This document shows positions 2,177 to 64,000 of a stretch of DNA of 64,000 bases, piece after piece. Source of the stretch: Azolla caroliniana (Eukaryota > Plantae > Polypodiophyta); assembly GCA_043228905.1 (NCBI GenBank), contig JBHGNT010000012.1, forward strand, positions 7,006,001 through 7,070,000. The letters are read 5' to 3'. Position 1 is the stretch's first letter. Each line of letters opens with the position of its first letter. The notes under the pieces are model-generated. The model searched no databases. It saw only the letters and a program-made list of their open reading frames with translations, and had not been told where the DNA came from. Made by a program: the position numbers and the translations under genes.

Positions 2177-4610
2177 TTGTATTTTGGGGTTATTAATATT
2201 CGTCATACTAAATTCTTCCTAATTTTGTGTTTAAGAATGCATAAAAAAGCTACAATGGAGGGGATCATCAAGGAGTTCGTTGTGAAATATAGAGGGAATG
2301 CATATATCCATGTGGAGGGTTGGTCGGGTAATACTCCAAGGTTATTGAGAAATAGCTCTAAGATCAAACAAAGTTGCCGGAGGTTAAGTAGGCAAGGATC
2401 TCTTCGGTTATTAAGCAATATGCCTTTAGAGGGCAAAGTTAATGTTTTCATTCAGAACTAACAATTCGTGCCCATTAACGTAAACTAAAATTATAAAGAC
2501 AAAAGGGGGACCTCTAGTTGTTATACTACATGTGATGGTGTTGATTGGAGAATACTCTAACCTGATTGAGAAGGAACTCTTTCATACTATCACGTGGACA
2601 CTATAGAACAAGGTCGAGAAAGGCAAGAGAAGCTCCTTGGATTTGTTGGTGTTACCTTTATAACGACAAATGGAAAAAATGGTAATGTGGTAATACATTT
2701 CTTTTCGGAGTAAACAATAAATGTGCATGATCTCAAATGAAACTCATAAAGGATACAATTATTGTTTTCACTCCTTTTGTCGAGGAAACAATGTTAATGT
2801 TTGTGAAGCTTTTCTTTTTTTGAGCAAACTAGTGTGCATGATCTTAAACAAAATGTAGAAATAGACATAATAATGAACACAACAGCAAACCCATGCCTCA
2901 TTACTACAACTCGTTACCTAAATGTTGAAAAGTGTAGTTCTGAATTTTAGAATCCCAATAAATTTATGAACTCATGGATCTATCATTGGTACTCCATATG
3001 GACAGTTAAAGTCTTTTATATACATTATGTTTAAAGTCAAGGATTTTGCATTGTATCATCAGCGAGGAATGTATTGTCTTATCATCAAATGAATGATTAA
3101 ACTCTAAGGTAACTAAATAGAATAATTCGTTGCTTAAAGTCAAAAGATTGCCATAATAAACAATTTATATTATAAAGTGGAAACCACCTTACCATAACCA
3201 GTGATGCTACAGGAACTCTTCATAATATCTTGCAAGTGCCCATTATGTATGCAATATGTGATTCAATATTTGTGTGCACAAACATGATTGATTCCTAATC
3301 TTATCTTTACAAGTATTGTCGGCAAGTGACAATACACCATGATAAGTGGTTCTAGTATGAGTTGCAAGTAAGTGAGAGACTTGCAAGAGAGAATATGCTT
3401 AGATGGAGAGAGAGAGAGAGAGAGAGAACTATTGAAAACAATTGTGTATATCACATGTAAGAAAACAACTTTTAGTATGAGGGAGATCATTAAGAGTGTT
3501 ATCCATCAATATTGTATAGACATCTCTAATCAATAAATTTGGACACACTTCACATAGCAAAGGAAAGAACCTAATATATACTATGTTGCTGATCTTGCAA
3601 GGAGGAGGACTTGAATTAATGCTGAATGATATCTTTCATACAATTTATAACATGCACAAAGAACTCAAGCATGATTTAAGTAGATTTTTCAATGTTGGGG
3701 AACATGTCCAATTGGATTATTCGATTTAACTATATTTCAAAGAAGGCCTTAGTTCATGCGTTCAATTTTATGTTTTCTAAGTTCTTGAGGGATTAAAATA
3801 GCAAACTTTGATTGAGTCGTAAGATTGAAAGGCTTAGGGAGCAAGATTTTCCATTTTGAGTCGTGTGGTTAGAGCATTTGTTAAGTTGGCCTTGGGTTTT
3901 ACTACTTTTCTTTTGTTACTATATTATTGTCCTAAGTACTTATATGATAGTATCAATGAAAACATGTGGTATAGTTGAGGATTTTCTAATTCTCATCATT
4001 TATATTTTGGGCAAGAAATTGAGCATGCAACTTTAATGAGGTCTCTAATATAAAATTTAAATATAATTGTATTTGGAAAGGAAAAAAAACACTTTCTTGA
4101 TTAATCACATATTTGAAGTTTCCAAAGTACTTGTGTATGTGAAGTTTTTCTTTTTTGTCGAGGTTGGTTCTACCTTCATTCACACTTTCTACTCATCATA
4201 TAGAGACTTTGTGGATTGCTTTTGATGATTATCTTGGGAAGGTTTGAGGTTCCTCTTCCCCTTATGGGTGGTATCCAATTTGGGCAATATTTTAATGAGG
4301 TTTAAAGTCCTTGTATTAAAGAGGATTGCAAATTGCAAAGGCTTTTACATTGTCGAGGTCTAGGAGTTATCAGAAATCTGGTAGATAAACATTGGAATTT
4401 GGCACCTTCCACAACTTTCAAGGCAAAGTTGTCACACCTTGGCCATCCAAATGCATAGCAAAGATATACATATAGTTTTATTGTTAACCCATTCATGAAA
4501 AAGAAGATCATAGTCAAAGAAACTCTGTGGTGTATGTTTCATAATAGTTTTTTCCTACTTGTGAGTTGTGTGTGTAAAAAAGGTTTATTAAGGACAATAT
4601 CTATTATCAA

Positions 4611-23629: not shown

Positions 23630-26372
23630 TGTTGCGAAGATTCGCGCGTGCGTGTGCTACTCGAGCGGGACCGCCGGGGTCTTAGACCAAGGAGGACGTT
23701 CACCAAGTTATCGAGAAACAATGTTACCCTTGAGAAGATCAAAGGTTGATGATTATAAGAAGAACAATAAGAAGTATAATAAGATTGATCGAAGATAAAA
23801 TAAGAAGTACAGTAAGAAGTATAATTATAAGAAGAATTTTATATTGATGATGATGATGATGATGATCTTCCAATTTAGCCCCCCTTACACAAGCCCAACT
23901 AGAGGCTTTTATAGGTCTCTCCATGCTTGTGACATACAAAAAACCATGGGTTTGAAGCCATGGTTTTTGTTCACACGGTTTTGCTTGTGACATGCATAAA
24001 ACCATGGGCTTGGAACCATGGTTTTCGTGCACACGGTTTTGTATGGTTGTTTCCTATGTAATTTGAATTAGAAAAGGAAATACATAAAAGTTAAAGAACT
24101 TGATAATAACCCTAATGGTAAGTCAAACATTTTTTTATCTTGGAGGTGCAAGGTTCAAACCCTACTTGCACCCCTTGTATGGAGTAAAATGAGACTAAGC
24201 CTTAGGCTTATTCATATCTACAAGTGTTTGTGTAATGTTTGTGGACCCACACTTTTTCATTTTTTCTCCCATTGGACACGCAACATCGCGACATTCACCC
24301 CCACCAAACTGCACATCCTCCGACATTTGCCAAGAAGAAAATAGTGATGTGGCGGGATCAACGGTGGTTGCCCTTTGATTTCCTCCTTCATTGCTCCTCG
24401 CTTGTGCCGTTATTTTTCCTCCACTTCGAATCTCTCCCTTCTTTCAACCCAAAACGCCACCGCCATCTGACCCACCATATCCTTTGCCTGTACCTTTCAC
24501 CACGACCGGATGCCGTGGGCTCCATGGCTTGCATCAAGTATATCTCTTTGTGCACCATGCATGTGCCACCTTCATACCGTCCATCTCCTTGGTCAAAACA
24601 CTTTGATCCTTCATCCTTTCTCCTCTTGTGCTTGCCTTCAAAAAGCCCCATCCGAAAACCGATGTTGACTACCCATAATAGTCCTTTCTTCAAGTACATG
24701 CTCACCTCGAGGTCCTTAAGTGACAACATTGCATGCTTCCCATTTCGTCCACTCTCGTGGTATACTCTCATGATAGAGTTTGCCAACTACTCCAATCTCC
24801 ACGCTAGTGTCCTCCTCCACATTAGATGTCGTCATTAAATCTCGAAGAACACCCTTCAAATCCACCCAACCGGCTTGGCCATCACCGTCTGTCGTCATGC
24901 TTCACTTCGTCTATTCATTATACACACCAGCTTAATCCTTTGCTTCCTCGCCGCCACCTTCCGTATCCTCGGTCTCACATTGGTTCTCGGATGCAACTAC
25001 CAAAGCCTCAAGAACTAGTAGGGAGAAAGACTCGGCACTGTCGTCTTTCGTTGTTTTGCCCATGGCCACCTCAACCATCTCTCCACCGTATGCATAGGCT
25101 TTGACCTTCGTTTCCTCGCCGCCACCTTCCCATCTCTTCGGTCTCACGTTGGTTCTTGGATGCAACTACCAAAGTCTCTGGAACAAGTGTGGAGGAATCC
25201 TCTCCATGGTCATTGCTCGCTCTTGCCGATGTCATCATCTGCGTTGTCTTGGTCCTTCTCTTACTCGCTGCCACCATTTGTCTCTTGGGTCTGACGTTGG
25301 TTCCCAGATGCAACTGCCCTAGTCTTTGGAACTAGTGTGGGGGAAGTCTCAACACAACCATCCACCATCGACTCGTCCATAGCCACCTTCGCCTTGACGT
25401 CGTTATCCGTCGCTATCTCTTCAACTCATAGGCATGACCCTCTTTTTCCTCCTCGATCATGCAAGGTTCGATTATGCTTGCCCCTTCATCACCTAATGTT
25501 TCAAAGTGGTGTTTGCCACTCTCGAATCATCGACCTTATCCTTGGTTATCATTCCTTTGCAAGATGAGAGGATGGCTTGCTCCACACCCTCTCCCATGGT
25601 ACCATCGTAACATACTTTGGTCTTTGTATTGGACACATAATTCGACCTCAATCATTGGGAGGCAACTTCCACCTCGTCCATCATTTGCCTCGGCTTTGGC
25701 TCTATTGTAACCTTCTCTTCGGCCTCGGCCTTCTCCTTCAAGCTCTCATACACCTCCCTTATCAAGGCTTCCATGTCAAGTACCACCAAACCTTTATGCT
25801 TCGAGACCTCTTCCTTTGTTGGTAGCTCGTCGTCACATTTCACCTTTCTTTGACCATCTCTTGTGGGCCGTGTTGTTACTGACGAGATTCCGACTCGCCC
25901 CTTATCTTGTAGTCAACATACTCTTTCCACTTTGGTTCAATCCTCGGCGAGGCCATTTGCACCATCATCATCTTCGAGTTTGAGTCCAATGACCATCCTT
26001 TCCATTCGATCAATCGACTTCATGGACAATAACACTTTATCCACCCCCACCAATCTTTGATCCCACTCTGAGAGTTCGGCAAAATGATGCTCAAACTCTA
26101 GGAACGCATGCATGGCACCTTGGTGGGTCTTCGTCGATGACACCCATCGGTCGAACTCGCACTGACCTTCTCCCTTCGGTTTTTCGTAACCATATGCCTC
26201 CAATAGGCCTTCCTCGAAGGACACCCACAAATCATGAGCTTCTCGAAGCTCTTTGACCTCTTTGTGTATCGGTACTACTACTACCCGGAAAAAATATTCT
26301 AGTCTCATAGCTTCGTCGACACCTCGCCAATCCATCTTGGCATTGTAGGATTTTAGAAACATTTGAACTTCG
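23630..26372 (-). mobile_element. Element C: non-autonomous Gypsy-like element (3' LTR 23630-24293, PPT, decayed gag-like region). The 5' end is missing.
   Basis: Termini TGTTGCGA...TCGCGACA. Minus-strand PPT TGGTGGGGGTGAA at 24294-24306 and minus TATAAAAG near 23910. Gag-like ORF at 25937-26362. The LTR shares a ~95-bp block with the LTR of element D. No pol motifs seen. Confidence 0.75.
24969..25340. repeat. Three diverged internal repeats in element C
   Basis: GGTCTCAC-TTGGTTC---GATGCAACT-CC...GAAC-AGT occurs at about 24970, 25140 and 25288. Confidence 0.8.
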
Positions 26373-33722: not shown

Positions 33723-36634
33723 AGGCTGGACTGGTTTTCTCTGTCCCAACACAATTTGGCGCATGCCAGTGGATGCGCGGTTAGGTGGGGGCGGATGTCG
33801 TGAAGAAAACCGTCCACAAGCGGAATCGGTGCACCGGAGCGTAGAAACTGACTCTTCATGCACGAGCGCCTTATGTTGTATATAGGAGATCCTAGGAAGA
33901 TTCGGTAGGTAGGAAGTAAAGGGGAAACGGCTCCTTCCTTGCCTAGAAAAGGTGGGAGACAACGAGGGGCGAAGGATCGCGGAGAGTCGAGGACGAAGTG
34001 CTGTCGGTTTGCGTGCGAAGGCTTCTCTCTCTCTCTCTCTGGTTTGCAAACGCCATAGCTTCCTTCTGTGCAGGTTTCGGGAGGCTCGCGCTGCTTTGAG
34101 GAATGCCCGAGTGCTTCCGGCAGCACTTCCAACCTACTCCTTCCTCTCTGTGCGTTTACGAGCAGGTATCGGCATCTGTTCGCCGGCCTGTTCGGTTGTA
34201 ACCGACTTCGTGTTTTGTTGTCTTCGTGTTCTTGTTGTTTGTCTTTGTCAATACATACATACATTCGTGTCTTTCTGTGTCGCTGTCCCACTTGCGTCTT
34301 TGCGTCGAAGGGCCGTGTCCCTGTGGATCTACGCTCGCACGTAGAGGGATTCTTCCCCTCCTCTCTTGCCCTTTGGTACAGGACCCCCGAGGTTCCGTCT
34401 CATTCCACGCATCCGCGAGGAATACCTCGACACCGGATGAGGAGCACCCGGCTACGGAGAGCCGGATGGTGCAGACCCGGTGAGAACCGGATGAGGAGTA
34501 GCCGGCTATGGAGAGCCGGATGGTGCAGACCCGGTGAGGAATGCTCACCAAATGAAGAGACATATTTGTAAATATGTTTCTGAGAGTCCATCGAGGCTAT
34601 ATTTGTAAATAGCCGAAAAGTCATATTAGTATAAATATGACTTAGGGCAACTTTTAGTAGGGGTTGTTGTCGTTCTTGTTGGTGAAAGGAGAGAGAGAGT
34701 GTGTAACTGTGTATAGAGAGAGAGAGAGAGAAAGAGGTCGTTGCCTCTGTTGTAACCGCCGCCTGTGGCGAAGATCGTGAGCACGAGGTCGTTGCCTCTG
34801 TGAACTCACTGTTGTACATTCTAACATAGTGATAGTTTGCAGCCTATGGGCTGCCGTGGTTTTTCCCTCAATTTGAGTTTTCCACGTAAACATCCTGTGT
34901 GGTCTTGTCTCCATTTTGTCGTGCATTATTTTTCGTTTTCTTTGCATGATTCTAAGCTCGGTTGTGGCCGAGCGTTGTGCATAAGGAGCGTTGAGTTCTC
35001 GTCAATAACGTATGGTTTGTTGACTCGGGAGCATCCAACCACATGACGTCTCATGAAGAATGGTTTCGGGAATTATGAAAACCCGAACGACCCGGATATG
35101 TCGAGACAGGCGATGACACAACTCATCCAATACAACATATCGGGAACTTCCCATTTGGAAACAATGGCAACCAAACCTATCTCAAGAACATACTGCATGT
35201 CCCTACCATCACGAAAAACCTAGTTTCGGTCGGCCAGATTGTCGAACAAGGAATGCAGGTACGATTCAACGACGTATGCTTCATCGAAAGGGGTAGACAA
35301 GTCGTAGCCCACGGTCGACGAGAAGGCCATATGTTTATCCTTGAATCGAACAAGGTAAGGTCAACCATGTTCGCAAAGGGCCCTAAAGTCGAAACCGACA
35401 TAAATCTGTGGCAGAAGAGAATCGACCACATCAATTTCCAAAAGCTCCAGAACATGCAATCGAAAGGCGTCGTAATCGGACTCCTGAATTTTACGGCGAA
35501 GCAGGTTATGGGTGTATGCGAAGCATGCCAATTCGGAAAGCAACACCATCACCCATTCCCAAAGAAGCGGAATGTGAGCAAAGGAATCCTGAATGTCATA
35601 CATTCAGATGTATGGGGACCAGCCTACATAGCCACATTCGGCGGTTGCCGATACTATGTAACGTTCATCGATGACTTCTCTAGGAACACCCAGATCTACC
35701 CGATGAAACAAAAGAGCGAAGTGTTCGGATACTTCCAGAGATTCAAAGCTGAAGTTGAAAAAGCTACGGGTCAGCATGTACGCTACCTTCGATCGGATGG
35801 AGGCAAAGAATACTTCTCGGCCGAGTTTACGGCATATCTCCAAAACGAACGAATCCGACGAGAATTCTCATGCCGTCACACACATCAGTAGAACGGTGTA
35901 GCAGAGCATAAAAATCGGCACATAGTAGAATTCACACGGGCTATGATGAATGAGAAGAACCTGCCCAAATCGTACTGAGCAGAAACTACGAACACGGCTG
36001 TATACCTCATGAATAGGTGCACAACCTCGGGAGTACACGACATAACTCCTCATGAGCAGTTCTTTGGAAAGAAGCCGAACTTATCACATGCAATGCATGA
36101 GCACCAAATGGCAATCATGCATTGCATGGATCTCATACATTGTATGCATGTCTTACACCCTCACATCCATCATATGCATGGGGGCATCTATATAAGAAAG
36201 AAAGAAGGGAGGGATCAATCAATCGATGAATCCGTCAAGTTATGTATCAAATAAAAAATTAATAATAATAAAAAACCTAGTTATCTTATTGGTGATGTGC
36301 CTTGTTTTTCTAAATTGAAGTCAAGGGTTCAAACCTAGAATTGGAATTTCAGTACGTCTATCTATTTATCTATCTTAAACACTTCCTCAATTTTTGTTTC
36401 TCTCTCACTCTCACTCTCAACCACATTAGTGCCTCACTTCAACTGCCTACACGTCAATCCACCGCACCATTGAGTTGTGTTCGGGTGCATCTTCAACAAC
36501 AAAGAACAACCCGACAATAAACCTAAAACGGCTAATTCATCTCCTCCATAACCACTAGTAGATAGAGTCTCGGTGCTTGTGACGCACACATTGCGACGTT
36601 TGGCACGTGTGTCACGCGCGACACGACATCACTT

Positions 36635-36652
36635 TGGTGAACCCGATGTGAA
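36635..36652 (+). promoter_or_regulatory. Primer-binding site complementary to the 3' end of tRNA-Trp
   Basis: It matches the reverse complement of plant tRNA-Trp (...TTCACGTCGGGTTCACCA, from memory) with one C>T mismatch, 6 nt after the LTR. Confidence 0.8.
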
Positions 36653-36667
36653 CAACACAAGGTGGTA

Positions 36668-38026
36668 ATGGGGGCATCGCGAATGGTGGATGTGATCTTG
36701 GATGCATACGACTTAGAGGAGTCGATAAGAATAGAACGTGGTCTAGGGCTCATGTTGCTTCCATTTGTAAGGAAGGCCATCGAAATGATGTTGCACGATG
36801 ATAAGGATAGAGCGTTGGAGTATCTCAAGTTGGCAAGGCAAGTCGAAAGACTATATCAAGAAGTTCCGGATTGGTACGAAGCGGTTCTGACATCAAGATT
36901 CGGGCCTCAACCTTTTCATGGTTTGCTCGACAGTGACGACGATGAAGATGATCGAGATCGGCGTAGTTGCGGTGGTGAAGAGACATGTGACGAAGAACAA
37001 GGCTTTGAAGAGAGATATCGAGATCAACATGCCTATGGTCGTTACGAGGATCATTGCAAGCTCGACAAAAAAGAAACATGTGACGAAGAACGCGATCTTG
37101 AAGGGAGGGATTGTGATCGACATGTCTATGGTCATCATGAAGATCATTGCAAACTCAAGACAAGAGAGAGATGCATCAAAGAAGGATGCAATCGTGAAGA
37201 GATATGTGATGAAGAACGTGGGCTCAAGAGGGAAGATCAAGAAGGATGCGATAATAAAGAGACATGGAATGAAGAACATGCCTTTGAGGGAAAAGTCCAA
37301 GATACTCAAGGATGCAGTCATGAAGAGACATGTGACAAAGAATGTGGGCTTGAGGAGACAGATCAAGATCTACACGGTTATGACAAAGACAAAGATCATT
37401 ACAAACTCACAAAGAGTGCTCGAGATCTACAAGGTTATGATCATAACAAAGATTACTGTAAACACAAGAGGAGGAATAAATGTCGAGCTCTTCATGGTTG
37501 TGCTAATGAAAAAGCACTCGACGAAAGTCGTGATGGTGAGTGTAGTTGGGATCAAGACTCTCATGGTTTAAATTTTGATGACAAGAATGATAGGTTTAAT
37601 GAGAGCCACGAACAAGAGAAGAAGTTGCAAAGAGACGAAAACTTTACATTTAAACGTAATGACGGTGATGATAATAACGATACACATGATTTAAGGTTTA
37701 ATGATAGTAAGAGAGAGTGTATTATTGATGGTGAGAGTGAGTTCCATGAGAAGAATGAGGGTTATGATGATAAAAGGTTGTGCACTTTCTGTGGATATGG
37801 TTATGATAAGAGTAATGATGAGGGTGAGAGTGACGAACGGGAATTTTGTGTTTTAGGTTGCCTTGGTTTTCTTCGTGATAGATTTTATAAGGGTTTCACT
37901 AAATCAAATGGTGACATTCATGAGGACATCCATTATGAAAATGGAAAGGGGTTTTGCGATGATGAGGATGTTCTACAAAAATATGTCCATGATGATGTGG
38001 GGTTACATAATGACACAAGGGTATGA
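36668..38026 (+). CDS. Acidic, Cys/His-containing repeat protein of unknown function in element D
   Basis: Uninterrupted ~452-454-aa ORF starting just after the PBS, with repeated (E/K)ETCDEE...H-x-YG...DHCKL motifs. Confidence 0.55.
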   Translation: MGASRMVDVILDAYDLEESIRIERGLGLMLLPFVRKAIEMMLHDDKDRALEYLKLARQVERLYQEVPDWYEAVLTSRFGPQPFHGLLDSDDDEDDRDRRSCGGEETCDEEQGFEERYRDQHAYGRYEDHCKLDKKETCDEERDLEGRDCDRHVYGHHEDHCKLKTRERCIKEGCNREEICDEERGLKREDQEGCDNKETWNEEHAFEGKVQDTQGCSHEETCDKECGLEETDQDLHGYDKDKDHYKLTKSARDLQGYDHNKDYCKHKRRNKCRALHGCANEKALDESRDGECSWDQDSHGLNFDDKNDRFNESHEQEKKLQRDENFTFKRNDGDDNNDTHDLRFNDSKRECIIDGESEFHEKNEGYDDKRLCTFCGYGYDKSNDEGESDEREFCVLGCLGFLRDRFYKGFTKSNGDIHEDIHYENGKGFCDDEDVLQKYVHDDVGLHNDTRV

Positions 38027-38993
38027 GTAAGGAAAATCTAGAAAATGTTATTTGGAATGTGTATAATGATAATGTTGGTGTTGCGAGTGTGTGCGGGAAG
38101 GATGAGTTTAGGGTAGATAACATTGAATATGATGGTTATCAGTGATAAATGATTCAGTGATTAAAGATGTTGTTAGCTCAAAGGATTACTATAATGATGA
38201 TGTAAGTATAATGAACATTGAGGTTGTTATTGAAGAAGATGATGTTATGGTAAAATGGATGGTTATTACTTATAAAGAAGAAAGAAAATAAGTGATTGTG
38301 AGTACTACCCATAGGAAGGAAGGGAAAGATGCATCGAAATGGTGGGATGTCTAACTAAACAAAGGAGGTTGTATTGCCAACATTTCCATCTCCAATCTCA
38401 AAGAAAAAGATTGGCTAATTAGAAGAAGCACCCGGTTTTTAGATTTGGTTCAACAAGACACATCGACTACATCTCAAGAATATCGAAGAGAGAGGTCGGG
38501 TATTGATCTACGACAACAGCCTTGTCAAACCGACAACAAGACCGTTCGCAAGAAGGTGGTTTGGATCGTATGTGGAGCTAGAAGGATCAAGGCTGGCCAT
38601 ACCCATTGTAGGGAAAAAGAATAAAGATCTTCAAGAAAAGACAAGGTGAGGATCCCAAACTCGATGATCTCAACAATGAAGTTAGTAAAGCGGAACCCAC
38701 AAACATGAACGAGGTCAACGAGGACGTGGAGGAATCTCACACCGTAGCCTAAATCTCACATTCTCTTCTTGGCACATACCTGAGGACATGTGGTTTGGTG
38801 GGGATGGATGTCGTGAAGATTTTCGGCAACGGTGTGAAAATCGCGTGGAACGGAGAAAATCGAGAAGGTGCAATGTGCACACGAATGAATGGGGCGATGG
38901 TTACACTCGTACGTTAGCATGTTGTAAATATAAATGAAATGAGTACCCCTAAGGCCTAGTAGCATTTTCATGCATACCAAGGGGTGCAAGTAA

Positions 38994-39046
38994 GGTTTGA
39001 ACCTTGCGCCTCCAAGTTAAGACACAATTGACTTACCATTAGGCCA
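38994..39046 (-). promoter_or_regulatory. tRNA-type Pol III A-box/B-box module in element D U3 (homologue at 24108-24161, plus strand, in element C)
   Basis: On the minus strand, TGGCCTAATGG (39046-39036) and GGTTCAAACC (39003-38994), with starts 43 nt apart. Confidence 0.65.
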
Positions 39047-42000
39047 AGTTGTTACTTGTTATACTTTTATCATTGTATTTTTCACATGTAAATGTTCATA
39101 CATTAGAGATTGAATGACGAACATGGTCATCATGCATCACATGCGATGCATGAGCACCAAATGGCAATCATGCATTGCATGCATGTCTTACACCCTCACT
39201 TGCATCATATGCATGGGGGCATCTATATAAGAAAGAAAGAAGGGGGGGATCAATCAATCGATGAATCCGTCAAGTTATGTATCAAATAACAAATTATTAA
39301 TAATAATAAACCTAGTTATTTTATTGGTGATGTGCCTTTTTTTTCTAAATTGAAGTCAAGGGTTCAAACCTAGAATTGGAGTTTCAGTCCATCTATCTAT
39401 CTACCTACACGTCAATCCACCGCACCATTGAGTCGGGTTTGGGTGCGTCTTCAACAACAAAGAACAACCCGACAATAAACCTAAAACGGCTAATTCATCT
39501 CCTCCATAACCTCTATCGGATAGAGGTTCGGTGCTTGTCCACGCTTGTGACGCACACATCGCGACGTTTGGCACATGTGTCACGCGTGACACGACAACGC
39601 GACAAAAGCTCGACCCGAAGTCGGAGAAATGTATCCTCGTAGGATACTCACTCGAACAGAAGGGGTACAAATGCTACAACCCATCTACCCAAAAAGCTCG
39701 CGTAAGTCAAGATTTCGTTTTCGACGAGTCTGCATCCTGGTACGCACCAGAAACACCTTCAACTCTAACTCTGCTCGCCCCGGAATCCGCCGAAGTGGTG
39801 ATAAAAGACGAAGATCGGCTCACACGCATGTTTGAAGAAAGCTCGATTATGACACAGCTTAGTGGACCACGAGAGCTTTTGAGTGACCAAAGCACATTTC
39901 GACCGAGTCCGAAACTCGACAAAGGGAAGGCCAAGATGTCTGAATACGAAGATCCAATCGACAACGCGTCAACTCACTCCTTTGACAGTGAGTTCGTAGG
40001 CCTAGACATCCCAATCATCCGGACAAATGGAGCTAAGAAAGCCTTAGTATCCGCAAACGAGAAGCTCAGTCGATCGACCCATGAAAAGAACCCCATAAGC
40101 CACTTCGCCTACAACAATTATATGACATACCATTACGCCTTCATGATGAAGGTAGCATCAGTACGGGATCCGGAGACATTTTTCGAAGCCACAAAGGATC
40201 CACGATGGGTCGATGCGATGCATGAGGAAATGGAAGCGTTATGCAAAAACGAGACATGGGATCTCATCCCTAACATGCTGCACAACAGCCGCAAAAGGGT
40301 GGCACCTCCACTAGATGGACATGAAAAACGCTTTCCTCCAAGGAAAATTAGAAGAGGAAGTATATATGATTCAACCACCCGGATTTGAATCGTGTAGTCA
40401 TCTGCACGACGTATGCCACCTCAAGAAGCCATTGTACGGCCTCAAACAAGCACCCCGTGCGTGGCACTCGAAGATCAAACAATATCTTCATCAGATCGGA
40501 TTTTGAATGTCAATATCTGATACTTCCCTATACATTCGAAATGAGTCGGATAGCCCGATTGTCATCATCCTTTACATGGATGATTTGGTCATCTGAGGAA
40601 CAGATCTCGCCGAGATTAACAAAGTCAAATCACTTCTCTCCGGCAAATTTGAAATGAAAGACCTGCACGAGCTCCATTACTTCCTAGGCATTGAAGTAAT
40701 TCAGACACTAATCGGAATACCGATCTCTCAATGACACTACATTCTTAACTTGCTCTACAAGTTCAGAATGACCAAATGCAAACATGTGTCCACCCCTCTC
40801 GATCGTAATCTCAAGATGGATGTTGATTCCGGCACAGCCTTGTGCGAGTCAACTCAGTATCGTCAACTAATCGGCAACTTAATCTATCTCACCATTACGC
40901 GACCTGATCTCAGTTATTTGGTCGGCCTACTTAGCCAATTCATGCAGAATCCGTGAAACCTTCACCTCGATTGCACTAAGAGGATATTATGGTATGTCCA
41001 TACTACGATGAATTACGGCATTATGTATAAGTCAAATAAGACCATTCGACTCGAAGGATACACAGCCGCGGACTAGGCATGCTACAAAGTGGATAGACGA
41101 TCCACATCCGGATCTGTCTTCTCCCTCGGCAACGGAGCAATCTCCTAGAGCAGTAAGAAGCAGCCGACAATCCCACTATCAAGCACGGAAGCAGAATACA
41201 GGGGCGCGACAGTCGCCGCTTGCGAAGCCGTATGGCTCAAGCACATCCTAAAAGATCTAGGCCTTCCCATTACAGATCCAATTCGTCTCTTCTGCAACAA
41301 CATGAGCAACATCTACCTCACTCGGAACCCCGTCTTCCACGCGTGGACTAAACACATCGAAGTGCACTACCACTTCATCCGCGAGCGCGTATTGGCCGGA
41401 GAAATCGATCTACAACATATCAGTACACACCTCCAGATTGTTGATATTTTTACGAAGGCCTTAGGAGTCGACAAGCTCGGGCAATTCGCATTGGACCTTG
41501 GTCTAACACCATCCACATTTCCGAGCTTGAGGGGGAGTATTGCAGGCGACACACGCACTGTACGAAATTGACCGAGTACACAACACGCAAATTAATCGAA
41601 CCAAGCACGAAGCGGAAAAGTGGAACTATCCAGTTTGAGGATTACGAATGACGGAAGCCGGATTCTGAAGACCGAACCGAAACAACTTTTCGACAGATGG
41701 GAGTTGTGTTCGTAGGGGCGTGTTGAGAGTCGAACTCAACTTCCCATAGTAATAGGTTTCACACTAGCTCATGGACATATCAGACTACTTTTGTAAATAG
41801 TAGAAAGGGCACTTACCCTATCTTAGTTGGTATTTAAACCAACCCCTTGTAACTTAGTTACTGTTGGAAGTATTTTGGTTAATGTAATATAAAGTCTTTT
41901 ATCTCTCTCTCTCTCTCTTTGTTTTGCCTTACCTGCATACACACACACACAATCCTTCCACTGCATCTTAGCCACTCTTGGTCCTCATTTTATTTATAGT

Positions 42001-54824: not shown

Positions 54825-57800
54825 CCCTCGACCACGACCTCTACTTTGTCCATGTCCTCCATATTCTCTCTCCTTAGATGGTTTAGGGCAAGCATTCTTT
54901 AAATGACCAACTTCACCACAATTGTAGCATTTTCGATTTTCACTTCCGCTTGAATTTGACACCATTAGTGTCGAGCGTACCCCTGGAAGTTCAATGGTGT
55001 CATAGAGCAGCTTCATTCTACTCTCCTCCTATATCATAGTTGCAGTTGCCTTATCAAGTGTGGGAATTTCAGCCTTGGCTAGAAGAACTTCCCTTCTTTG
55101 ATCAAACGACGGGTTGAGATGTTTCAAAAAGTGCATGGTTCTTCTTTGAGCAGAAACCTCCTTGCTCTTACATTGAGGATCGTTGCACACTGTCATAGGC
55201 GAGAAATGTTCATATTCTGCCCATAAGCGCTCTAATTCTATGGCATATTCCTGAATCATCCTATCTCCATGCTAGATGACATCTATCTCTTGCTCGATTT
55301 GAAATACTATCACATTATTTCCCCTCCAGCATACGTCTTTTGCAATTTCTCCCAAATCTCCTTCACACTTAAATTCCATCAACAGTTGCGGCGATTGATT
55401 GAACCATGAAGTTGAGAAGTCGCGTATACAAAGACATGTGGGTAGCTTTCCATTCACTACTCATTTTAACAAGAGGTTCTTTCTCTTCTCCTATTAGGTA
55501 GCCATCAAGGTTTCTCCCTGCCAAGGAACCCGTAATCCGACACGACCAGCTCAAGTACGTGGTTGGTCCATCGAGTTTGAACTCAACTAGGAGTAGTTCA
55601 AGTCGAGGTTGTGTTTGTGTCCTTGTCACACCTCCAGATGCTACAATCTCATCCCGCGTCATTTATTTCACCAATGTTTTCACCTCATCCTCATTCAATT
55701 TTGAGAACACCTCGTTGATTTTCTCAACTTAGCCTATCGTTGCTCTCCTCTTCTGTCTTCTTTTCTCAAGTCTCCTCTCAATCACATAGGAATGTCATCC
55801 TAAAAGGAGAAGCCCACTTTCCTCTCTTGGATGCTAAGACAATGTTGTTCCGATCGTTGTCGTACCAACAAAGGGGTGGATTTATGCTCTGATACCAAAT
55901 AGAAAAGTGAGGAAGCACATTTGTTCAATAATATACATTGGTATGTCACAACAGGAGGGAGAAAATACAGAGATCGCTCATATTTACATGAGGAGAAAGT
56001 TTCTCTTTATAAAGGTCGAGATCGGACCGTTGGGCTAACTAGTTGTTGGCGTTGACTAGCCATTGGGCTAGCTATTATAACTTTTAACCATTCTCAACAA
56101 TATTTGAATAATCTTTGATGATCTTGCGATAAAAGTTTGTGAACCCCAAAAAAAATTGTACACCTCGCATAGACTGTGGTGTTTGCCAATTAAAAACGGT
56201 TTGAACCTTTGCTAGATCCATAGAGATGCCATTTGAAGAGACCATGTGCCCCAAAAATTCCATTTGACACTAGTCGAAACTACACTTCTCCAATTTTGCA
56301 TAGAGACCATATTCTCGTAACTGCTGCAAAGCTTGGAAAACATGTATATCATGCTCCTCTTGAGTTTTTGAGTAGATCAAGATATCATCAAGGTAAATAA
56401 ACTGTGATATCGAGGAAGTCCTGAAAAATGTCATTCACTATATGTTGAAAAACGGTTGGTGCATTCATGGGACCTAACATTTACCATATGTTGAAAAACT
56501 GTTGGTGCATTCGTGAGACCAAATGGCATCATTGTATACTCAAAATGGCCATAGCGAGTGCGGAATGCATCATCCCCATGACAAATTCAAACAAGGTTGT
56601 AGGCACCTCGAAGATCTAAGTTCGTGAAATATTTTGGTCCGCTGAGGGCGTTCCAGAAGGCTTGAGATTAATGGTAGAGCATATCGGTTTTGATTAGTCA
56701 CTTTATTTAATTCCCAATAATCCAGGACCATACGAAGCGAACGATCTTTCTTCTTAACGAAAAAGATGGGTGCACCAGCCAGAGATCTTGAATGTTGGAT
56801 ACAACCATTTTCTAGGTTCTCATCGATATATTCTTGAAGAACTTTTAACTCCATAGGCGAAAGGTTATAAATTGGCCCCCATGGAGCCTCTTTTTTTGGC
56901 TACAAATCAATCCGGCAATCTTATGGCTGATGCTCTAGTAGTGTATTGGCCTTTACCTTATCGAACACATCTGAGAATTCTGTATACTTATTTGGTAGTT
57001 GGAGCCCCAATTCTTGTGAGCTAGATGAGGGAGTTGCTAAAATCGCAAATACAGACATGTCTTCCTTCCTCACGTAATTGATGTATAGAGATTGTTGAAA
57101 TCTTGTGGAATCCCAGACCCCTTGTTGGAGTTTTAATAGACTCGGACTATACCATGACCTTTTCAATAGTTCTTTTTCTCCAATCAATACTTGGGTTATG
57201 TAGCTCAAACCATGGAAGACCGAGAACTAGGGAGTGCTCTGGACTACTAATGATGTTGAATGAGATGACATTGGCCAAATTGCCTAGGAATACATGAATT
57301 TGTTCAGACTCTTCAACTATATCACTGTATGCTATGGGGTGTCCATCAATGACTCCAACAGACACTGGGTTTGGGAGTTAATGCAACTTGATACTATGAA
57401 TTATAGCAAAGTCATGATCCATGAAACAAGAGTTGGCTCCAAAATCTAAGAGGGAAAAAGTTGAGACTCAATGACACCTAGATGTGGTAAGCTCAACTTC
57501 TGTGCAGAAAACTCAACTAACTTGCCTGATGCAATGGAACCACTACTAGGGACATACAGTATATGCCTAGGACTATCCAACCAAATGGCTCCTATTTTGG
57601 TCGGACTTACCCATTTACCCCATCTTTGAATTGGCCCAAGACATCAAATGTATTTTTATGACAGGGGTTACTAGGCCTATTTAGGTTACGTGAAGACAAG
57701 GCAAAAATTGAAATGGGGTTGTCATGGGCACTTGGTTAACTTGTCATCTTGGTTTATGTGGACAATTCACAACTATATGTCCTAGACCACCACAATATAG

Positions 57801-60800
57801 GTATAGACGATTCGCTCGACGTCGTTGCTTATCAGCACCCAATAATGGTCCTCCGTGTCATGTTGTCTCGATTTCCATCGAAGTAGGGCCTTCCATCAAA
57901 CTAGGCTTTGACACTTGTTTTTTTTCTTATCAAGCCTAACATTTGTTGGCGTTCAGAACATTGTTCAAATAAAAATTGTCACAGCACACGTCCCAACTTA
58001 TTGCTTCAGTAAGAGATTTTAGATCATCAGGGAAGTTAAGAAGTAAATCCTTCACGTCGTTGCGCAGACCTTTATGAAATTAGTTCATTAGTGTAGCCTC
58101 ATCCCATGGAATATCACATGCCAAGAGGCGAAAATCTATATTGTAAGCAAAAGTAGGTGTCAGGAATAGTACTAAAGCAGAGATGGAATTAGTACTAAGA
58201 AGAGTAGTACTATTAGTACTAAGAGGATGGGACTGCGTATTATTCCCGAGAGAGAGAAAGTGAGAAGAGTAGAGAGAGAGATAAGATAATGACAGCAGCT
58301 CTTATATTATATGAAAGATAAGTACAAATCGGCTAAGAGGCTTAAGACTGGTGTTGAACCAATTTGGTTCAACATAATGCCTAGTGCTCTCTTTTATAGT
58401 GTTCTCAGGAATAATCCTGAAGCTTCTAGAATGTTCCAAAGAGATCTGGAATATACATCAATTTTCTATGATAACACATAAATGAAAATAATATCCTACG
58501 TATTACAATTCATAGTTTAATGGTAAGAGCTCGACCCATGTAGCATAAGGTCATGGGTTCGAGTCTTGCCATATCATGACACTATCTCTCCCTTAAAGAC
58601 GACGAGTGGAACGAGTCGGCGCTGATTGTGGACCGGGTTTGTCCGGATACTTTCGGTGAAAATCAGCAAGAAGATCCTGAGCATTGGCAACATGCTCGGA
58701 CTATAACCGAGCCAATCGACCAAGTAATAAAGTTTGTTGCGAACAAGTTTGGAATCGAGGATGGCAGCAACTTCATACTCCGTGCCGGCGTCCAACTCCA
58801 GCGGGGGCGGCGATGGTGTCACACGATCGGGAATGGTGTTGGCTTTATAAGGTTCCAGAAGAGAACAATGGAAAACCGGATGTATCTGAAGCTGCGGAGG
58901 GAGATCAAGGCGGAAGGTAACATCATTAATCTTACCCGTAATACGGAAGGGACCGAGTCGTCGATAATCCAACTTGTCGCACGGTCGAGTAGTCTTGACG
59001 TGACGACGTAAGAGCCATACTCGATCTCCGATGGCAAAAGAGGAGGGAATCCGATGACGATCCGCATAAGTCTTCTGTGTGTGTTGAGCATGACGAAGGT
59101 GAGTAGAGAGATCCATCTGGATCTTACGTAGCCTCTCCAAATGATCCTCGGCACGAGGGTTGGTAGGTAGCTCCGGAGTGTCGATCACCGACCAACGAGG
59201 ATGGAAACCGGTATAAGCGAAAAATGGGGAGACCTGAGTCGAGGAGTGAATAGCATTATTATACGCAAACTCCGCAAAGTGGAGAATCTCGGCCCAATCG
59301 TCCTGTTGATAACTCAGGAAACACTGGAGATATTGCTCCAGCGTTTGGTTTGTTCGTTCCGCCTGCCCATCGGTCTGAGGATGGTAGCTGGAGGAGAGGT
59401 TGCAGGAGACCTTGAGCATCTTGAAGAGATGCTACCAAAATTTGGAGACAAATTGCGGGCCTCGGTCACTGATAATACTGTCTGGGAGGCCATGATGCCG
59501 AAATACCTCACGCATAACAAGAGCGGCGGTTTCCTTGCTAGTGATGGCTTTAGTACATGGCACAAAATGTGTCATCTTCGTATATCGATCGACGACGGTT
59601 AGGATAGCATCGAACCCCTTCGAGACCGGCAGATCTATGATAAAATCAAGACAAATAGACTGTCACGGCTTACTTGGAATCGGTAAGGGTTCCAACAAGC
59701 CATATGGATGGTGTCGTGGCATCTTTGCTTGGCAGCAAGCATCACAGGTCCGAACGTAGTCGTCGACAAAACGGCGCATTTGGGGCCACCAAAAGGATTG
59801 TTGCACTAGCTCCAACATCTTAGTACTACCGAAATGTCCCGCCGTATGGGTGTCGTGACAATGTTGGACGATTTGAAGGCGACAGGAGCAATCAGGGACA
59901 TATACGCGCTTTTTAAAGAATAACAAACCATCATGATATTCGAATTGTCGGTAGTCAATACCTGGTTGTTGAGACTGAGAACAGGATGCCCGAGAAGTAT
60001 CAATGTGCGCCAGGATGTCTTGAGCAAAACTATCCGTCTTCAAGGTTGCACGTATGTCATCGGTAATCCGTGAATCCATCGGGGTGTGAAAAATCCGCGT
60101 TGTGTGTAATCGTGTTGGTCCCAAGATTACTTGCTTTTGATTATCAAATGTTGCGTCACCAGGACGAGGTGCAAGATATGAACGCCATGATAGTGCATCT
60201 GCTTTTCTTGCTGCTTCCCCGGTCGATATGTGATTTTGAAGTCGAAACGCGTGAGGAATTGCGCCCACCGAGCTTGCCGTCGATTCAGTACGCGAGCGTT
60301 CTGAAAATAAGCAATATTTTAATGATCGCTAAAGACAATGACCTGATGTGGAGAGCCCTCTAAGAAATGCCGCCATTGCACAAATGAATCCACGATGGCT
60401 AATAACTCCTTGTCATGTATTTCGTAGTTGATTTCTGCGTCATCGAATTTGCACGAATGGAAAGCCACCGGATGCAACTCTTCTTTATCGCCTTGTTGAG
60501 AAAGGATGCTACTGAGGGTGAAATATGATGCGTCGGCCTCCATGATGAATGGTTTGCTTGTATCCACATGAGCTAGAATCGGTGTTGATGTAAAGGCTTT
60601 CTTAAGATGCCGAAAAGCCATATCTGCTTCTATGGACCAAAGAAATGCTTGGCCCTTCTTCGTAAGTTGTGTGAGAGGTAAAATAATCTTCGAGTAATCC
60701 TGTATAAACTTACGGTAGAAGTTAGCAAAACCTAGTAAACATTGTACATCTCGTACCGACCGTGGAATTTGCCACTCTAGTACAGTTTGGATTTTAGCTG

Positions 60801-63355
60801 GATCCATGGTGATGCCCTTTGAGGAGATGACGTAGCCTAGAAATTCCACTTGCTTACAGTCAAAGCTACATTTTTCTAGCTTGGCATAAAGACCATTCTC
60901 GCGGAGTCACTTTAGTACTAATAGTACATGAGAATCGTGCTTTTCCTGGGTCTTCGAATAAATCAATAGATCATCCAGATAAATGATCAAACAGATATCC
61001 AAGAGGTCTCTGAATATATCATTTGCCATGTGTTGGAAGACTGCGGGTGCATTGGTTAGGCCAAACGGCATAACAGTATACTCGAAATGCCCATACCGAG
61101 TGCGAAAGGCGGTCTTCCACTCATCTCCCGATCGGATCCGCACGAGGTTATACGCTCCTCGTAGGTCGATTTTAGTAAAAAACTTGGCACCATTAACTCG
61201 CTCTAAAAGACTTGATATAAGAGGAAGTGCATACCTATTCCAGATGGTGACTTTATTCAATCCGCGGTAATCAACGACAAGACGAAGTGAGCCATCTTTC
61301 TTCTTGACAAAGAAGATGGGTGCACCGGCCGGAGATTTCGAATGGCGGATGAACCCGCTTGCCAAGTTCTCCTCTATGTAGGCTCGAAGGACTTCTAACT
61401 CGGTGGGTGACAAGTTGTAAATTGGTCCCCATGGTGGCTCGGTTCCTAGTTGTAAATCGATGGGACAGTCATAGGGACGGTGATGAGGAAGGGTACCGAC
61501 TTTTACCTTGTCAAATACATCGGCATAAGGATGATATTTTGCTGGAAGTTGTACTGAGGAGTCCTTCTTAATAGTGCTGGAAGGATGTACTGATATTGCA
61601 AATAGGAACATTGCCTCCTTGGGTCCTTCTTCGCGTAGTTGATGGAGTGAAATGGTCGAAACTTGGTGAGTTGATTCTGGGGGTGGTCAATATCAGACTT
61701 CTCTTGTTCTCCAATCTATGGCTGGATTATGTAATTCAAACGAAGGTAATCCTAGGACAATGGGATGCTCTGGACTACTAATTATATTAAATGATATTAC
61801 ACACACAAAACTACCTAGGACAACTTGAATGGGTTCTGATTCTTCTACAATATTCCCGGAAGCAATGGGACGACCATCAATGACTACTACAGATGCGGGA
61901 CAAGGAAGTTTTCTTAAGGATATCTGAGAAGCTTGGGCAAAATTTCGATCCATGAAACAGGAATTAGCTCCGGAATCTAAAAGTGCTAGGACGGGTACTG
62001 GGGGAGTACTTTTAGTACTAACAATGACTTGGGCTAGGAACACATTGCTAACTTGCTTGGAAGGAATGGAACCACTAATGGGCTGTACAGATCTAGGGTT
62101 GTTGTCCAACCAAACGGCTCCTATTTTGGCTAGACTCAATCGTTTAACTCTTCATCTAATTGACTAAGGATTTCAAATTTATTTGAGATACTTGGGCTAT
62201 TAGTACTATGAATACTATCAAACACTCTATTAGTACTATTAATACTATCAGACACTCCTAAGGGAAGAATTGACTCGGGTTTAGTACAAGCTACAATTTG
62301 ATTTACCTATCTTCTTGGCCTATGGGGACAATTGATTGCGATATGCCCTGGTCCACCGCAATAAAGACATAATCGATTTGCACGTCGTCGTTGCTTTTCT
62401 TCTTCCGATAACGGGCCGCGTCGACGCATGGTATCGATCTCCATCGGTGTCGAAGTATTTTCTTGAGGTATGTCTCGTGCAAACGGTCTAGCCGCGACTG
62501 CGGCGTAAGTGGGCTCCGGCCTAGCGCGTGGTATCTGTAATTGACGTTCCGAACGCCGTTCGAAGAGGCGGTTGTCACATCGGACTGCTCAACTGATTGC
62601 CTCCGTAAGAGACTTTGGTTCTTCGGGGAAGGTTAGAAGTAGATCTTTGACATCATTTCCCAGGCCATAGCGAAACTGCTCCATTAGCGCTTGATCATCC
62701 TAGGGTATGTCGGAAGCGAGTAGGCGGAAATCCGCCGCGTAGGCAGAGGCTGGACGATCGCCTTGACGCAATCGCCGGATCTTGTTGATCGCCGTCCTGA
62801 TGCTGTCGGTGTCTCCAAAGCAGGCTTTGAACTCACTAATAAAATCTTCAAAGTTATTAAGCAAGGGCGATTGTTTTTTTAGAAGCGGAGCGAACCATGC
62901 TAAGGCTGAGCCGCTAAGCAACGTGCCTATTAAGCCGACTCGGGATGCATCAGTGGGGTATCGGGAAGGATGCATTTGGAGGACTAATCGTACCTGATTA
63001 AGGAATCCCCTGAATTGCGATCGCGTTCCATCAAATTTCACAGGAAGTCCAATCTTCGGCTCTTTATGAAATCCTTGGGGACTTGATCCTTGTTGTTGCA
63101 ATGCAGCTTCGAGTTGTTGCACTCGTAACGCTAACTCCCCATGTTGTTGCTGCGTTTGTTGCTTTTCTAGAGCGATTTGTTGCAGATCCCCTATCAGCCG
63201 TTGGTTTTCTTGTTCCAGGGCAACAAACTTTTCTTTTAGGCACTGTAACTCGGAGAAAACGGATTGATATTCATGGGCGCTAACAGTAGCCATAGTAGAG
63301 GGAAAAAGGTAGGAGGATGAGGGAGAACGACAAGTAGGCTGGAGGAAAGAGGAAA

Positions 63356-63367
63356 AAATTGGTTCAA
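63356..63367 (-). promoter_or_regulatory. Non-tRNA (self-complementary) primer-binding site
   Basis: TTGAACCAATTT lies 2 nt after the 5' LTR and is perfectly complementary to AAATTGGTTCAA at 63579-63568 within the LTR. Confidence 0.8.
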
Positions 63368-63726
63368 ACTGTCAAGAATAGTACTAAAGCAGAGATGGAA
63401 TTAGTACTAAGAAGAGTAGTACTATTAGTACTAAGAGGATGGGACTGCGTATTATTCCCGAGAGAGAGAAAGTGAGAAGAGTAGAGAGAGAGAGATAAGA
63501 TGATGACAGCAGCTCTTATATTATATGAAAGATAAGTACAAATCGGCTAAGAGGCTTAAGACTAGTGTTGAACCAATTTGGTTCAACATAATGCCTAGTG
63601 CCCTCTTTTATAGTGTTCTCAGGAATAATCCTGAAGCTTCTAGAATGTTCCAGAGAGATCTGGAATATACATCAATTTTCTATGATAATACATAAATGAA
63701 AATAATATCCTACGTATTACAATTCA

Positions 63727-63780
63727 TGGTCTAATGGTAAGAGCTCGACCCATGTAGCATAAGGTCATGGGTTCGAGTCT
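63727..63780 (+). promoter_or_regulatory. tRNA-type Pol III A-box/B-box module in chromovirus U3 (second copy at 58513-58566)
   Basis: TGGTCTAATGG at 63727 and GGTTCGAGTCT at 63770, with starts 43 nt apart. Confidence 0.65.
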
Positions 63781-64000
63781 TGCCATATCATGACAGTAGG
63801 ACGATCTCCTTGTCGTAATCCTCGAATTTTATTTATTATTGTCCTCATGCTATGAGTGTATCCAAATCTAGCTTCAAAATCCTTTATAAAATCCTTCAAA
63901 ATCTTCTAATAATGGTGAGTGCTTCTCCAAGAGTGGTGCAAACCATGTTAATGCAGTACTAGTTAACAAGGTACCAACCAGTCCCACACGAGCAACATTG

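Follow-up and report, generated by a model that had tools for sequence, protein, structure and literature searches.

The window, by which we mean the whole 64,000-nt stretch of Azolla caroliniana DNA analysed here, carries near its right end a coding Ty3/Gypsy chromovirus of 5.6 kb on the minus strand (58158-63795), whose Pfam domains follow the order gag-AP-RT-RH-IN-chromo and are spread over separate open frames (Table 1). The 5' and 3' LTRs of this element differ by 8 transitions and one 2-nt indel. The chromodomain match (E 1.1e-4) stays below the Pfam cut-off because the reading frame breaks inside the domain; close homologues carry PF00385, and on inspection the aromatic cage residues Y, W and Y stand at the expected places. 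The chromovirus is nested in an older, decayed relative (56096-58157 and 63796-64000; 64% identity over 1.4 kb), the part of the window from 15.5 to 55 kb is largely made up of nested Copia and Gypsy elements, and a PPR frame at 1722-2108 speaks for a plant host. The family is highly repeated, with 2,584-4,534 contigs matching a 561-bp stretch in four DNA runs, and the viral sequence collection contains no relative of its integrase. Integrase-LTR-gag junctions in about ten of the related loci described below could be read as tandem arrays, an interpretation that we did not adopt, as an assembler can walk through identical LTRs.

Table 1. Features of the chromovirus and of the A/B-box module at its LTR tips (window coordinates)
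Feature	Position	Strand	Remarks
Target-site duplication, left copy	58153..58157	.	GTAGG, 5 bp
3' LTR	58158..58581	-	424 bp
A box, 3' LTR copy	58513..58523	+
B box core, 3' LTR copy	58557..58565	+	full B box 58556-58566; faces PPT and integrase gene
gag, protease, RT, RNase H, integrase, SH3-like, chromodomain	58574..63371	-	several separate open frames
Polypurine tract (PPT)	58582..58597	-	precedes 3' LTR
Self-priming PBS	63356..63367	-	12-nt match to LTR, no tRNA end
5' LTR	63370..63795	-	426 bp, TG...CA; PBS and gag come next on minus strand
Likely transcript 5' end / self-primer	63568..63579	-	33 nt past TATA, complementary to PBS
TATA box, likely Pol II promoter	63606..63612	-	115 nt inside from A box
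Imperfect inverted repeat over module	63724..63793	.	70 nt; specific to the window's subgroup
A box, 5' LTR	63727..63737	+	antisense to element; tRNA positions 8-19; 7/7 scored positions
Variable-loop-like pentamer	63762..63766	+	tRNA positions 44-48; kept clade-wide
B box core, 5' LTR	63771..63779	+	G53-C61; 8/8 scored positions; 16 nt from LTR end
CCA	63783..63785	+	aligns with relatives' CCA at tRNA positions 70-72; 7-column gap precedes in subgroup
Target-site duplication, right copy	63796..63800	.	GTAGG, 5 bp

The 12-nt complementarity between PBS and LTR recurs in 9 of the 10 related loci that include an LTR-gag junction, in three different sequences, and the self-priming PBS and the transcript start co-vary between families (L080, L082, L085, L086, L088, L090, L091, L100, L120). 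The transcript start of the window element falls inside a 23-nt palindrome (63567-63589), where a B-box-like heptamer is found on both strands. Among plant chromoviruses a self-priming PBS marks the Tcn1 clade (PMC6317226), and judging from its sequence the window element looks like a case of Tf1-type self-priming, as in the Tcn1 clade of the Tf1/Sushi group. The DNA that leads from the A box to the Pol II TATA contains short palindromic repeats of the TTCTAGAA type (63630-63672), which many families share and which recur in the same zone of L086, L081, L089, L092, L095, L136 and L119; the repeat zone coincides with the second peak in contig depth, and we presume that it might be a factor-binding array resembling a heat-shock element.

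The subject of this report is the A/B-box module at the U3 tip of the LTRs, which is antisense to the chromovirus and faces outward. The preliminary description had placed A and B boxes in both LTRs with their starts 43 nt apart, and we find them at 63727/63770 and 58513/58556; its statement that the module opposes the element's transcription is borne out by the Pfam order, which puts the element on the minus strand. The 11-nt B box that it quoted is present (63770-63780 in the 5' LTR, with G53 at 63771), although its final C is a T in the window. For scoring, 15 positions of TRGYNNANNGG and GTTCRANYC were counted at a T8-G53 distance of 43-46. Both LTR copies score 15/15, which 0/300 dinucleotide shuffles of each tip equalled, so that the outcome which would have told against the module as first described, equally frequent matches in shuffled LTRs, did not occur. 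Twenty block shuffles of the whole window yielded no 15/15 and 0.2 matches of 14 per window. The 18-mer at 63762-63779 occurs in 74 unrelated viral loci, inside an ARAGORN tRNA in 61 of them, and lies 42-45 nt from the viral tRNA start 57 times, which is the offset in the window if 63727 is tRNA position 8. ARAGORN predicted no tRNA genes in the window, and the module had no tRNA match in Rfam at E<=10. Derivation of the module from a tRNA is supported. In one run, which is RNA only by guess, 4 contigs of depth 3-9 lie over the LTR tip, their strand and start not being shown.

Relatives of the element were gathered by similarity to aligned integrase C-termini, not by the motif, which gave 77 metagenome loci. 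Tips counted as testable in 44 of these, whose sequence showed the PPT-LTR junction followed by 85 nt or more of LTR; the others comprised 13 outgroup loci, 10 ending in integrase, 3 with too little LTR and 7 without a locatable junction (among the last, L149 has a module scoring 13 and L133 an A box only). On the antisense strand 34 of the 44 testable tips score 13-15/15, with the module 11-60 nt from the LTR end, and the spacing is 44 or 45 in 33 of these 34. The remaining 10 score 10-12, several of them through visible deletions, duplications or insertions; tips below 13 include contigs of 11-71x coverage (L083, L093, L099, L131). The sense strand of the same 44 tips together with the next 170 nt never exceeded 12/15, and neither did the 13 outgroup loci over up to 620 nt past integrase. 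Many of the loci are near-copies: when 46 tips are grouped by integrase DNA identity, a threshold of 85% leaves 25 groups and one of 80% leaves 16. Between carrier families this identity is only 55-89%. In a quick tree of 67 of the 78 rows (11 with short segments were dropped), made without bootstrap, the 34 rows marked as carrying the module are all found within a single clade, which comprises 52 rows and has an SH-aLRT of 97. The earlier proposal that the module belongs to the replicating element is upheld by its presence in both LTRs and its retention across the clade.

One family of the clade has a second antisense A/B module of 14-15/15 (L081:2962, L086:1019 and 6343, L088:526, L090:4967, L091:3240), which lies between protease and RT, in a linker that a single open reading frame traverses without a break. 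In the LTR tip of L139 the apparent end of a related LTR is inserted, reversed, between the boxes, and in the tips of L107 and L151 the break falls 3 nt ahead of the A box, at a sequence starting with TG. The window also holds a second LTR family (36083-36628 and 38810-39596, with a related piece at 24111-24218) that is unrelated by blastn to the chromovirus LTR, and whose 461-aa ORF (36641-38026) has no Pfam match. Its U3 bears an antisense module with a B box at 39002 on the minus strand (15/15; 13/15 at 24153 in the related piece), and a sense module of 14/15 follows its TATA at 36327 and 39362. These modules hint at repeated capture.

What is conserved at the tips was examined in 17 representatives, one or two per group and related in pairs, which were chosen after the tips had been viewed; rearranged tips were left out, which raises box identity, and two weak tips (L083, L137) were retained. 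An unguided MAFFT alignment of the 17 recovers the tRNA register. Pairwise identity is 0.88 both at the A-box invariants T8, A14, G18 and G19 and at the B-box invariants G53-C56, A58 and C61. Elsewhere it is lower: 0.27 at position 59, 0.37 both in the anticodon arm or spacer and at positions 62-70, 0.41 at the free positions of the A box (10-13), and 0.48 in the 5' flank, which is A/T-rich. The check set out beforehand, whether the boxes are preferentially conserved across the family, therefore comes out in their favour (0.88 at the invariants vs 0.37 in the spacer). Fourfold integrase sites of the same loci have an identity of 0.41, where saturation would be 0.30. At positions 9 and 57 all tips (17/17) have a purine, A in some and G in others, and T8 is invariant. 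Constraint is looser at two box positions, G10 in the A box and C61, the latter being found in 12/17 tips. Two further traits lie outside the boxes: the variable-loop pentamer, whose identity of 0.81 is on par with theirs, and a CCA at positions 70-72 in 8/17 tips, against 0.9 expected (2 more tips, of the window's subgroup, have it behind a gap). Within the window's own family, counting contigs of at least 82% identity in four runs, 45 variants reach 4% or more. Among the 40 of these that are listed, 16 lie within 18 nt upstream of the A box, whereas G18, G19 and the stretch 63760-63795, which includes the B box, have none. As for the A box of this family, position 9 swaps G for A, positions 10-12 vary, and T8 and A14 are altered in about 7%, in one and two runs, respectively. 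The box positions are clearly held by purifying selection across the carrier families.

The tRNA fold has fared differently. The preliminary description had found no proper cloverleaf, in keeping with the absence of ARAGORN and Rfam hits, and over 26 tips the acceptor stem keeps 2.3 of 7 pairs and the anticodon stem 2.2 of 5, near the 2.9 and 2.0 of shuffled sequences and far from the 6.4 and 4.7 of 47 real tRNAs. Some pairing survives in the D stem (2.8 of 4 pairs) and in the T stem (2.4 of 4), compared with 1.6 in shuffles, though these stems are absent from some high-coverage families, and cloverleaf covariation across the clade was nowhere above shuffles. Cloverleaf mimicry was rejected as a cause on these grounds, with stems at shuffle level and no excess covariation. 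The hairpin described over the module does exist and proved longer than claimed, spanning 63724-63793 with z -6.1; in it the 3' half of the A box mirrors bases past the B box. Long hairpins with z from -3.7 to -8.5 occur in six tips of the window's subgroup, whereas z is near 0 in most other tips. Across 14 related tips of the subgroup, 87.7% of cells are paired and 7 of 11 pairs have changed on both sides, which 0/500 shuffles matched; across the 17 tips 62% are paired and covariation is not above shuffles.

The preferred interpretation of these findings begins with protein recognition of DNA. Isolated invariant bases, purine-only swaps and a fixed spacing without a shared RNA fold are what TFIIIC recognition would be expected to leave at type 2 Pol III promoters, and it is probable, as far as sequence can tell, that TFIIIC recognizes the boxes at the U3 tips of this clade. 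It can be hypothesized that a reverse-transcribed mature tRNA or a tRNA-derived SINE was captured once, by the ancestor of the clade, a source that the CCA remnant suggests, and that selection has since acted on the boxes at each round of retrotransposition. The boxes cannot transcribe the chromovirus, because they point outward. Across the clade loci the Pol II TATA lies 113-172 nt further in than the boxes, and A+T content peaks at 0.84 between 40 and 21 nt upstream of T8. TFIIIC would bind the outer edge of the 5' LTR and place TFIIIB on the A/T-rich DNA inside U3 that separates the boxes from the Pol II promoter. There TFIIIB would stand back to back with the TATA of that promoter, and the arrangement would work as a tDNA chromatin barrier does. 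The element's Pol II promoter could thereby be kept open against spreading silent chromatin. A tDNA barrier in fission yeast requires an intact A box, and B-box-only barriers differ from it (PMC2040200). A barrier or promoter-keeping role may well be the reason why the boxes are kept, although our belief in it falls a little short of our doubt. Several findings count against it: the conserved pentamer and CCA are not predicted by DNA promoter recognition alone, G10 and C61 are relaxed, and 10 of the 44 tips score below 13. The upstream signals of plant tRNA genes, sought at the places given by PMC3082873, also count against it, CAA being present in 0/17 tips and TATAW in 4/16. Moreover, tDNAs can repress nearby Pol II promoters too.

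The strongest rivals to a barrier are an antisense Pol III RNA and the annealing of a tRNA to U3. Under the former, the module would be a working Pol III gene and its antisense RNA the selected product, by which the element limits itself or feeds small RNAs; a transcript from the 3' LTR would cross the U3 tip and PPT into integrase, and the subgroup hairpin would stabilise the RNA. That the A box and the spacing are retained, and not the B box alone, would fit such a gene, as would the hairpin, which besides covarying folds better on the tRNA-sense strand (-35.9 vs -27.2 kcal/mol in the window), and in foamy viruses A/B boxes within the LTR do give rise to Pol III RNAs (PMC3993851). Nevertheless, only 10 of 38 loci have a T4 terminator run within the LTR, and it is missing from the window copies, past whose modules the first T4 stands at 63827, in the flank, and at 59910, 1.3 kb into integrase; the CAA and TATA signals are not conserved, most families lack the hairpin and the 14 covarying sequences are related to one another, so that we regard this reading as unlikely. 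In the latter case it would be the genomic RNA that is conserved. Its U3 tip is the complement of tRNA sequence (D arm, variable loop, T arm and CCA) and would anneal to a tRNA of the host, serving dimerisation, packaging or strand transfer, much as in Ty3 the 3' part of the bipartite PBS, in U3, pairs with the T arm and D arm of the primer tRNA (PMC5371799). Such pairing accounts for the strict antisense orientation, the U3 position and the missing terminator, and also for the two traits outside the boxes. The elements look self-priming, however, and conservation falls at isolated bases such as T8 and A14 rather than in contiguous runs, positions 10-13, 59 and 62-70 drifting like neutral sites; changes that would preserve a G.U pair are nearly absent at G18, G19, G53, T8, T54 and T55, and the CCA of the relatives sits 2-4 nt short of its tRNA place. 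The one tRNA compared with the window module, the tRNA-Pro of L135, matches it at 35 of 72 positions without gaps. We consider tRNA annealing improbable as well, if not strikingly so.

The other explanations are weaker. Retrotransposons aiming at Pol III start sites, or members of the clade itself, could use the boxes as landing pads, and some tips are indeed interrupted upstream of the A box; but the breaks are scattered (about 3, 43, 66, 92 and 98 nt), no insertion hotspot appeared among the loose-end contigs listed, and a module of at least 13 was found in none of 7 locus flanks and 2 window flanks, a small sample. ARAGORN predicts 3 tRNAs in the 77 loci, none adjoining a recognised LTR end, which gives no sign of Ty3-like targeting in this small sample, and a landing pad would not by itself account for selection on the host element, which makes it very unlikely. 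The three tRNAs (Asn, Thr and Pro) are at L102:552-627, L102:831-906 and L135:3322-3393, the tRNA-Pro having a CAA just upstream and an A box that resembles that of the window. A neutral passenger, left over when a tRNA or SINE inserted long ago, could explain why the spacer keeps some shared bases, with one column at 0.88, and it gains something from fourfold sites that are still short of saturation. It is largely refuted by the contrast between box invariants and the free positions interleaved with them (0.27-0.41), by a spacing that stays at 44-45 while the distance to the LTR end ranges over 11-60 nt, and by the listed variants of the window's family, which avoid the B box and G18/G19 and gather upstream. 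Finally, a terminal hairpin acting on RT, integrase or RNA stability could be the selected feature and the boxes a by-product of the inverted repeat, as the mirrored A box and the z value of the 70-nt hairpin in the window and the covariation in its subgroup might suggest. Most families keep the boxes without a hairpin, which refutes it as a clade-wide cause, and the occurrence of the 18-mer inside tRNAs of viral loci also speaks against a by-product; we give this explanation hardly any credence, and the hairpin may instead have a second, subgroup-specific function.

To return to the barrier, the LTR Pol III promoters of non-coding TRIMs are thought to replace a Pol II promoter. Here coding, TATA-bearing elements keep wrong-way boxes under selection, and another function is therefore called for. 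Tentatively, and with more reserve than for TFIIIC recognition or for the barrier role itself, we propose that autonomous chromoviruses may have turned a domesticated tRNA gene into a TFIIIC/Pol III barrier that moves with them and that unrelated LTR lineages may have converged on the same device. If so, each new copy would bring in, at the outer U3 tip of either LTR, a non-coding tRNA promoter that runs backwards and protects the copy's Pol II promoter in heterochromatin, and the plant genome would be seeded with very many sites for the Pol III machinery. Should TFIIIC bind, the family would offer a natural, high-copy test of whether plants support tDNA-type barriers, and a means of resisting silencing that is new for transposons; should a tRNA anneal, a tRNA would turn out to have a part in an element whose priming does without one.

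Pol III-type promoters in LTRs are known, and autonomous chromoviruses that carry them appear to be undescribed: we found no case of tRNA-type boxes in their LTRs in a literature search that had subscription journals and Repbase outside its scope. The preliminary comparison was with Cassandra, which like Ajax has in the LTRs of a TRIM an internal Pol III promoter taken from a small-RNA gene; these promoters, however, are 5S-derived, with A, IE and C boxes, and the elements are non-autonomous, the Cassandra transcript beginning in the 5S part and running through the element (PMC10886601). The closer precedent for tRNA-type boxes in LTRs is Helenus (TRIMp3; Kojima 2024, PMC10886601), whose LTRs contain tRNA-derived sequence with conservation centred on boxes A and B, mostly without a functional tRNA and with a putative role in the element, as in the sequences described here. 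Helenus elements are non-autonomous, 311-1263 bp long and tRNA-primed, in contrast to coding, self-priming chromoviruses of 5.6 kb. Their promoter is proposed to transcribe the element, whereas the chromovirus boxes point away from it and a separate TATA is present; the orientation of the Helenus boxes is deduced from the model in PMC10886601. That paper covered elements under 1 kb, argues that autonomous partners use Pol II, and mentions that 'not a few' LTRs in Repbase resemble part of a tRNA, long ones not being described in the portion concerned. A sugar-beet preprint mentions Helenus in passing only, and a paper on Culex describes tRNA copies inserted at the PBS of one element.

Among autonomous retroelements, the Pol III miRNA genes of foamy viruses also have A and B boxes in the LTR, and these units are mutationally validated, with stem-loop products and T-run terminators (PMC3993851). 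The chromovirus unit differs in having no shared terminator or hairpin and in keeping the tRNA spacing. Ty3, with its bipartite PBS, resembles the window element in having U3 sequence that is complementary to a tRNA in its T and D arms, but it is tRNA-primed and pairs with one tRNA (PMC5371799), while the chromovirus clade looks self-priming and keeps generic invariants only. The Tcn1 chromoviruses are, like the window element, from plants, self-priming and in possession of the chromodomain aromatic cage (PMC6317226, PMC2864245); 'polymerase III' has 0 occurrences in the main texts of those two papers. With the tDNA and B-box barriers of fission yeast the likeness is one of proposed working, TFIIIC at the edge of a domain; the chromovirus site, known from its sequence, is mobile, whereas the barriers of fission yeast are fixed host loci with shown occupancy (PMC2040200).
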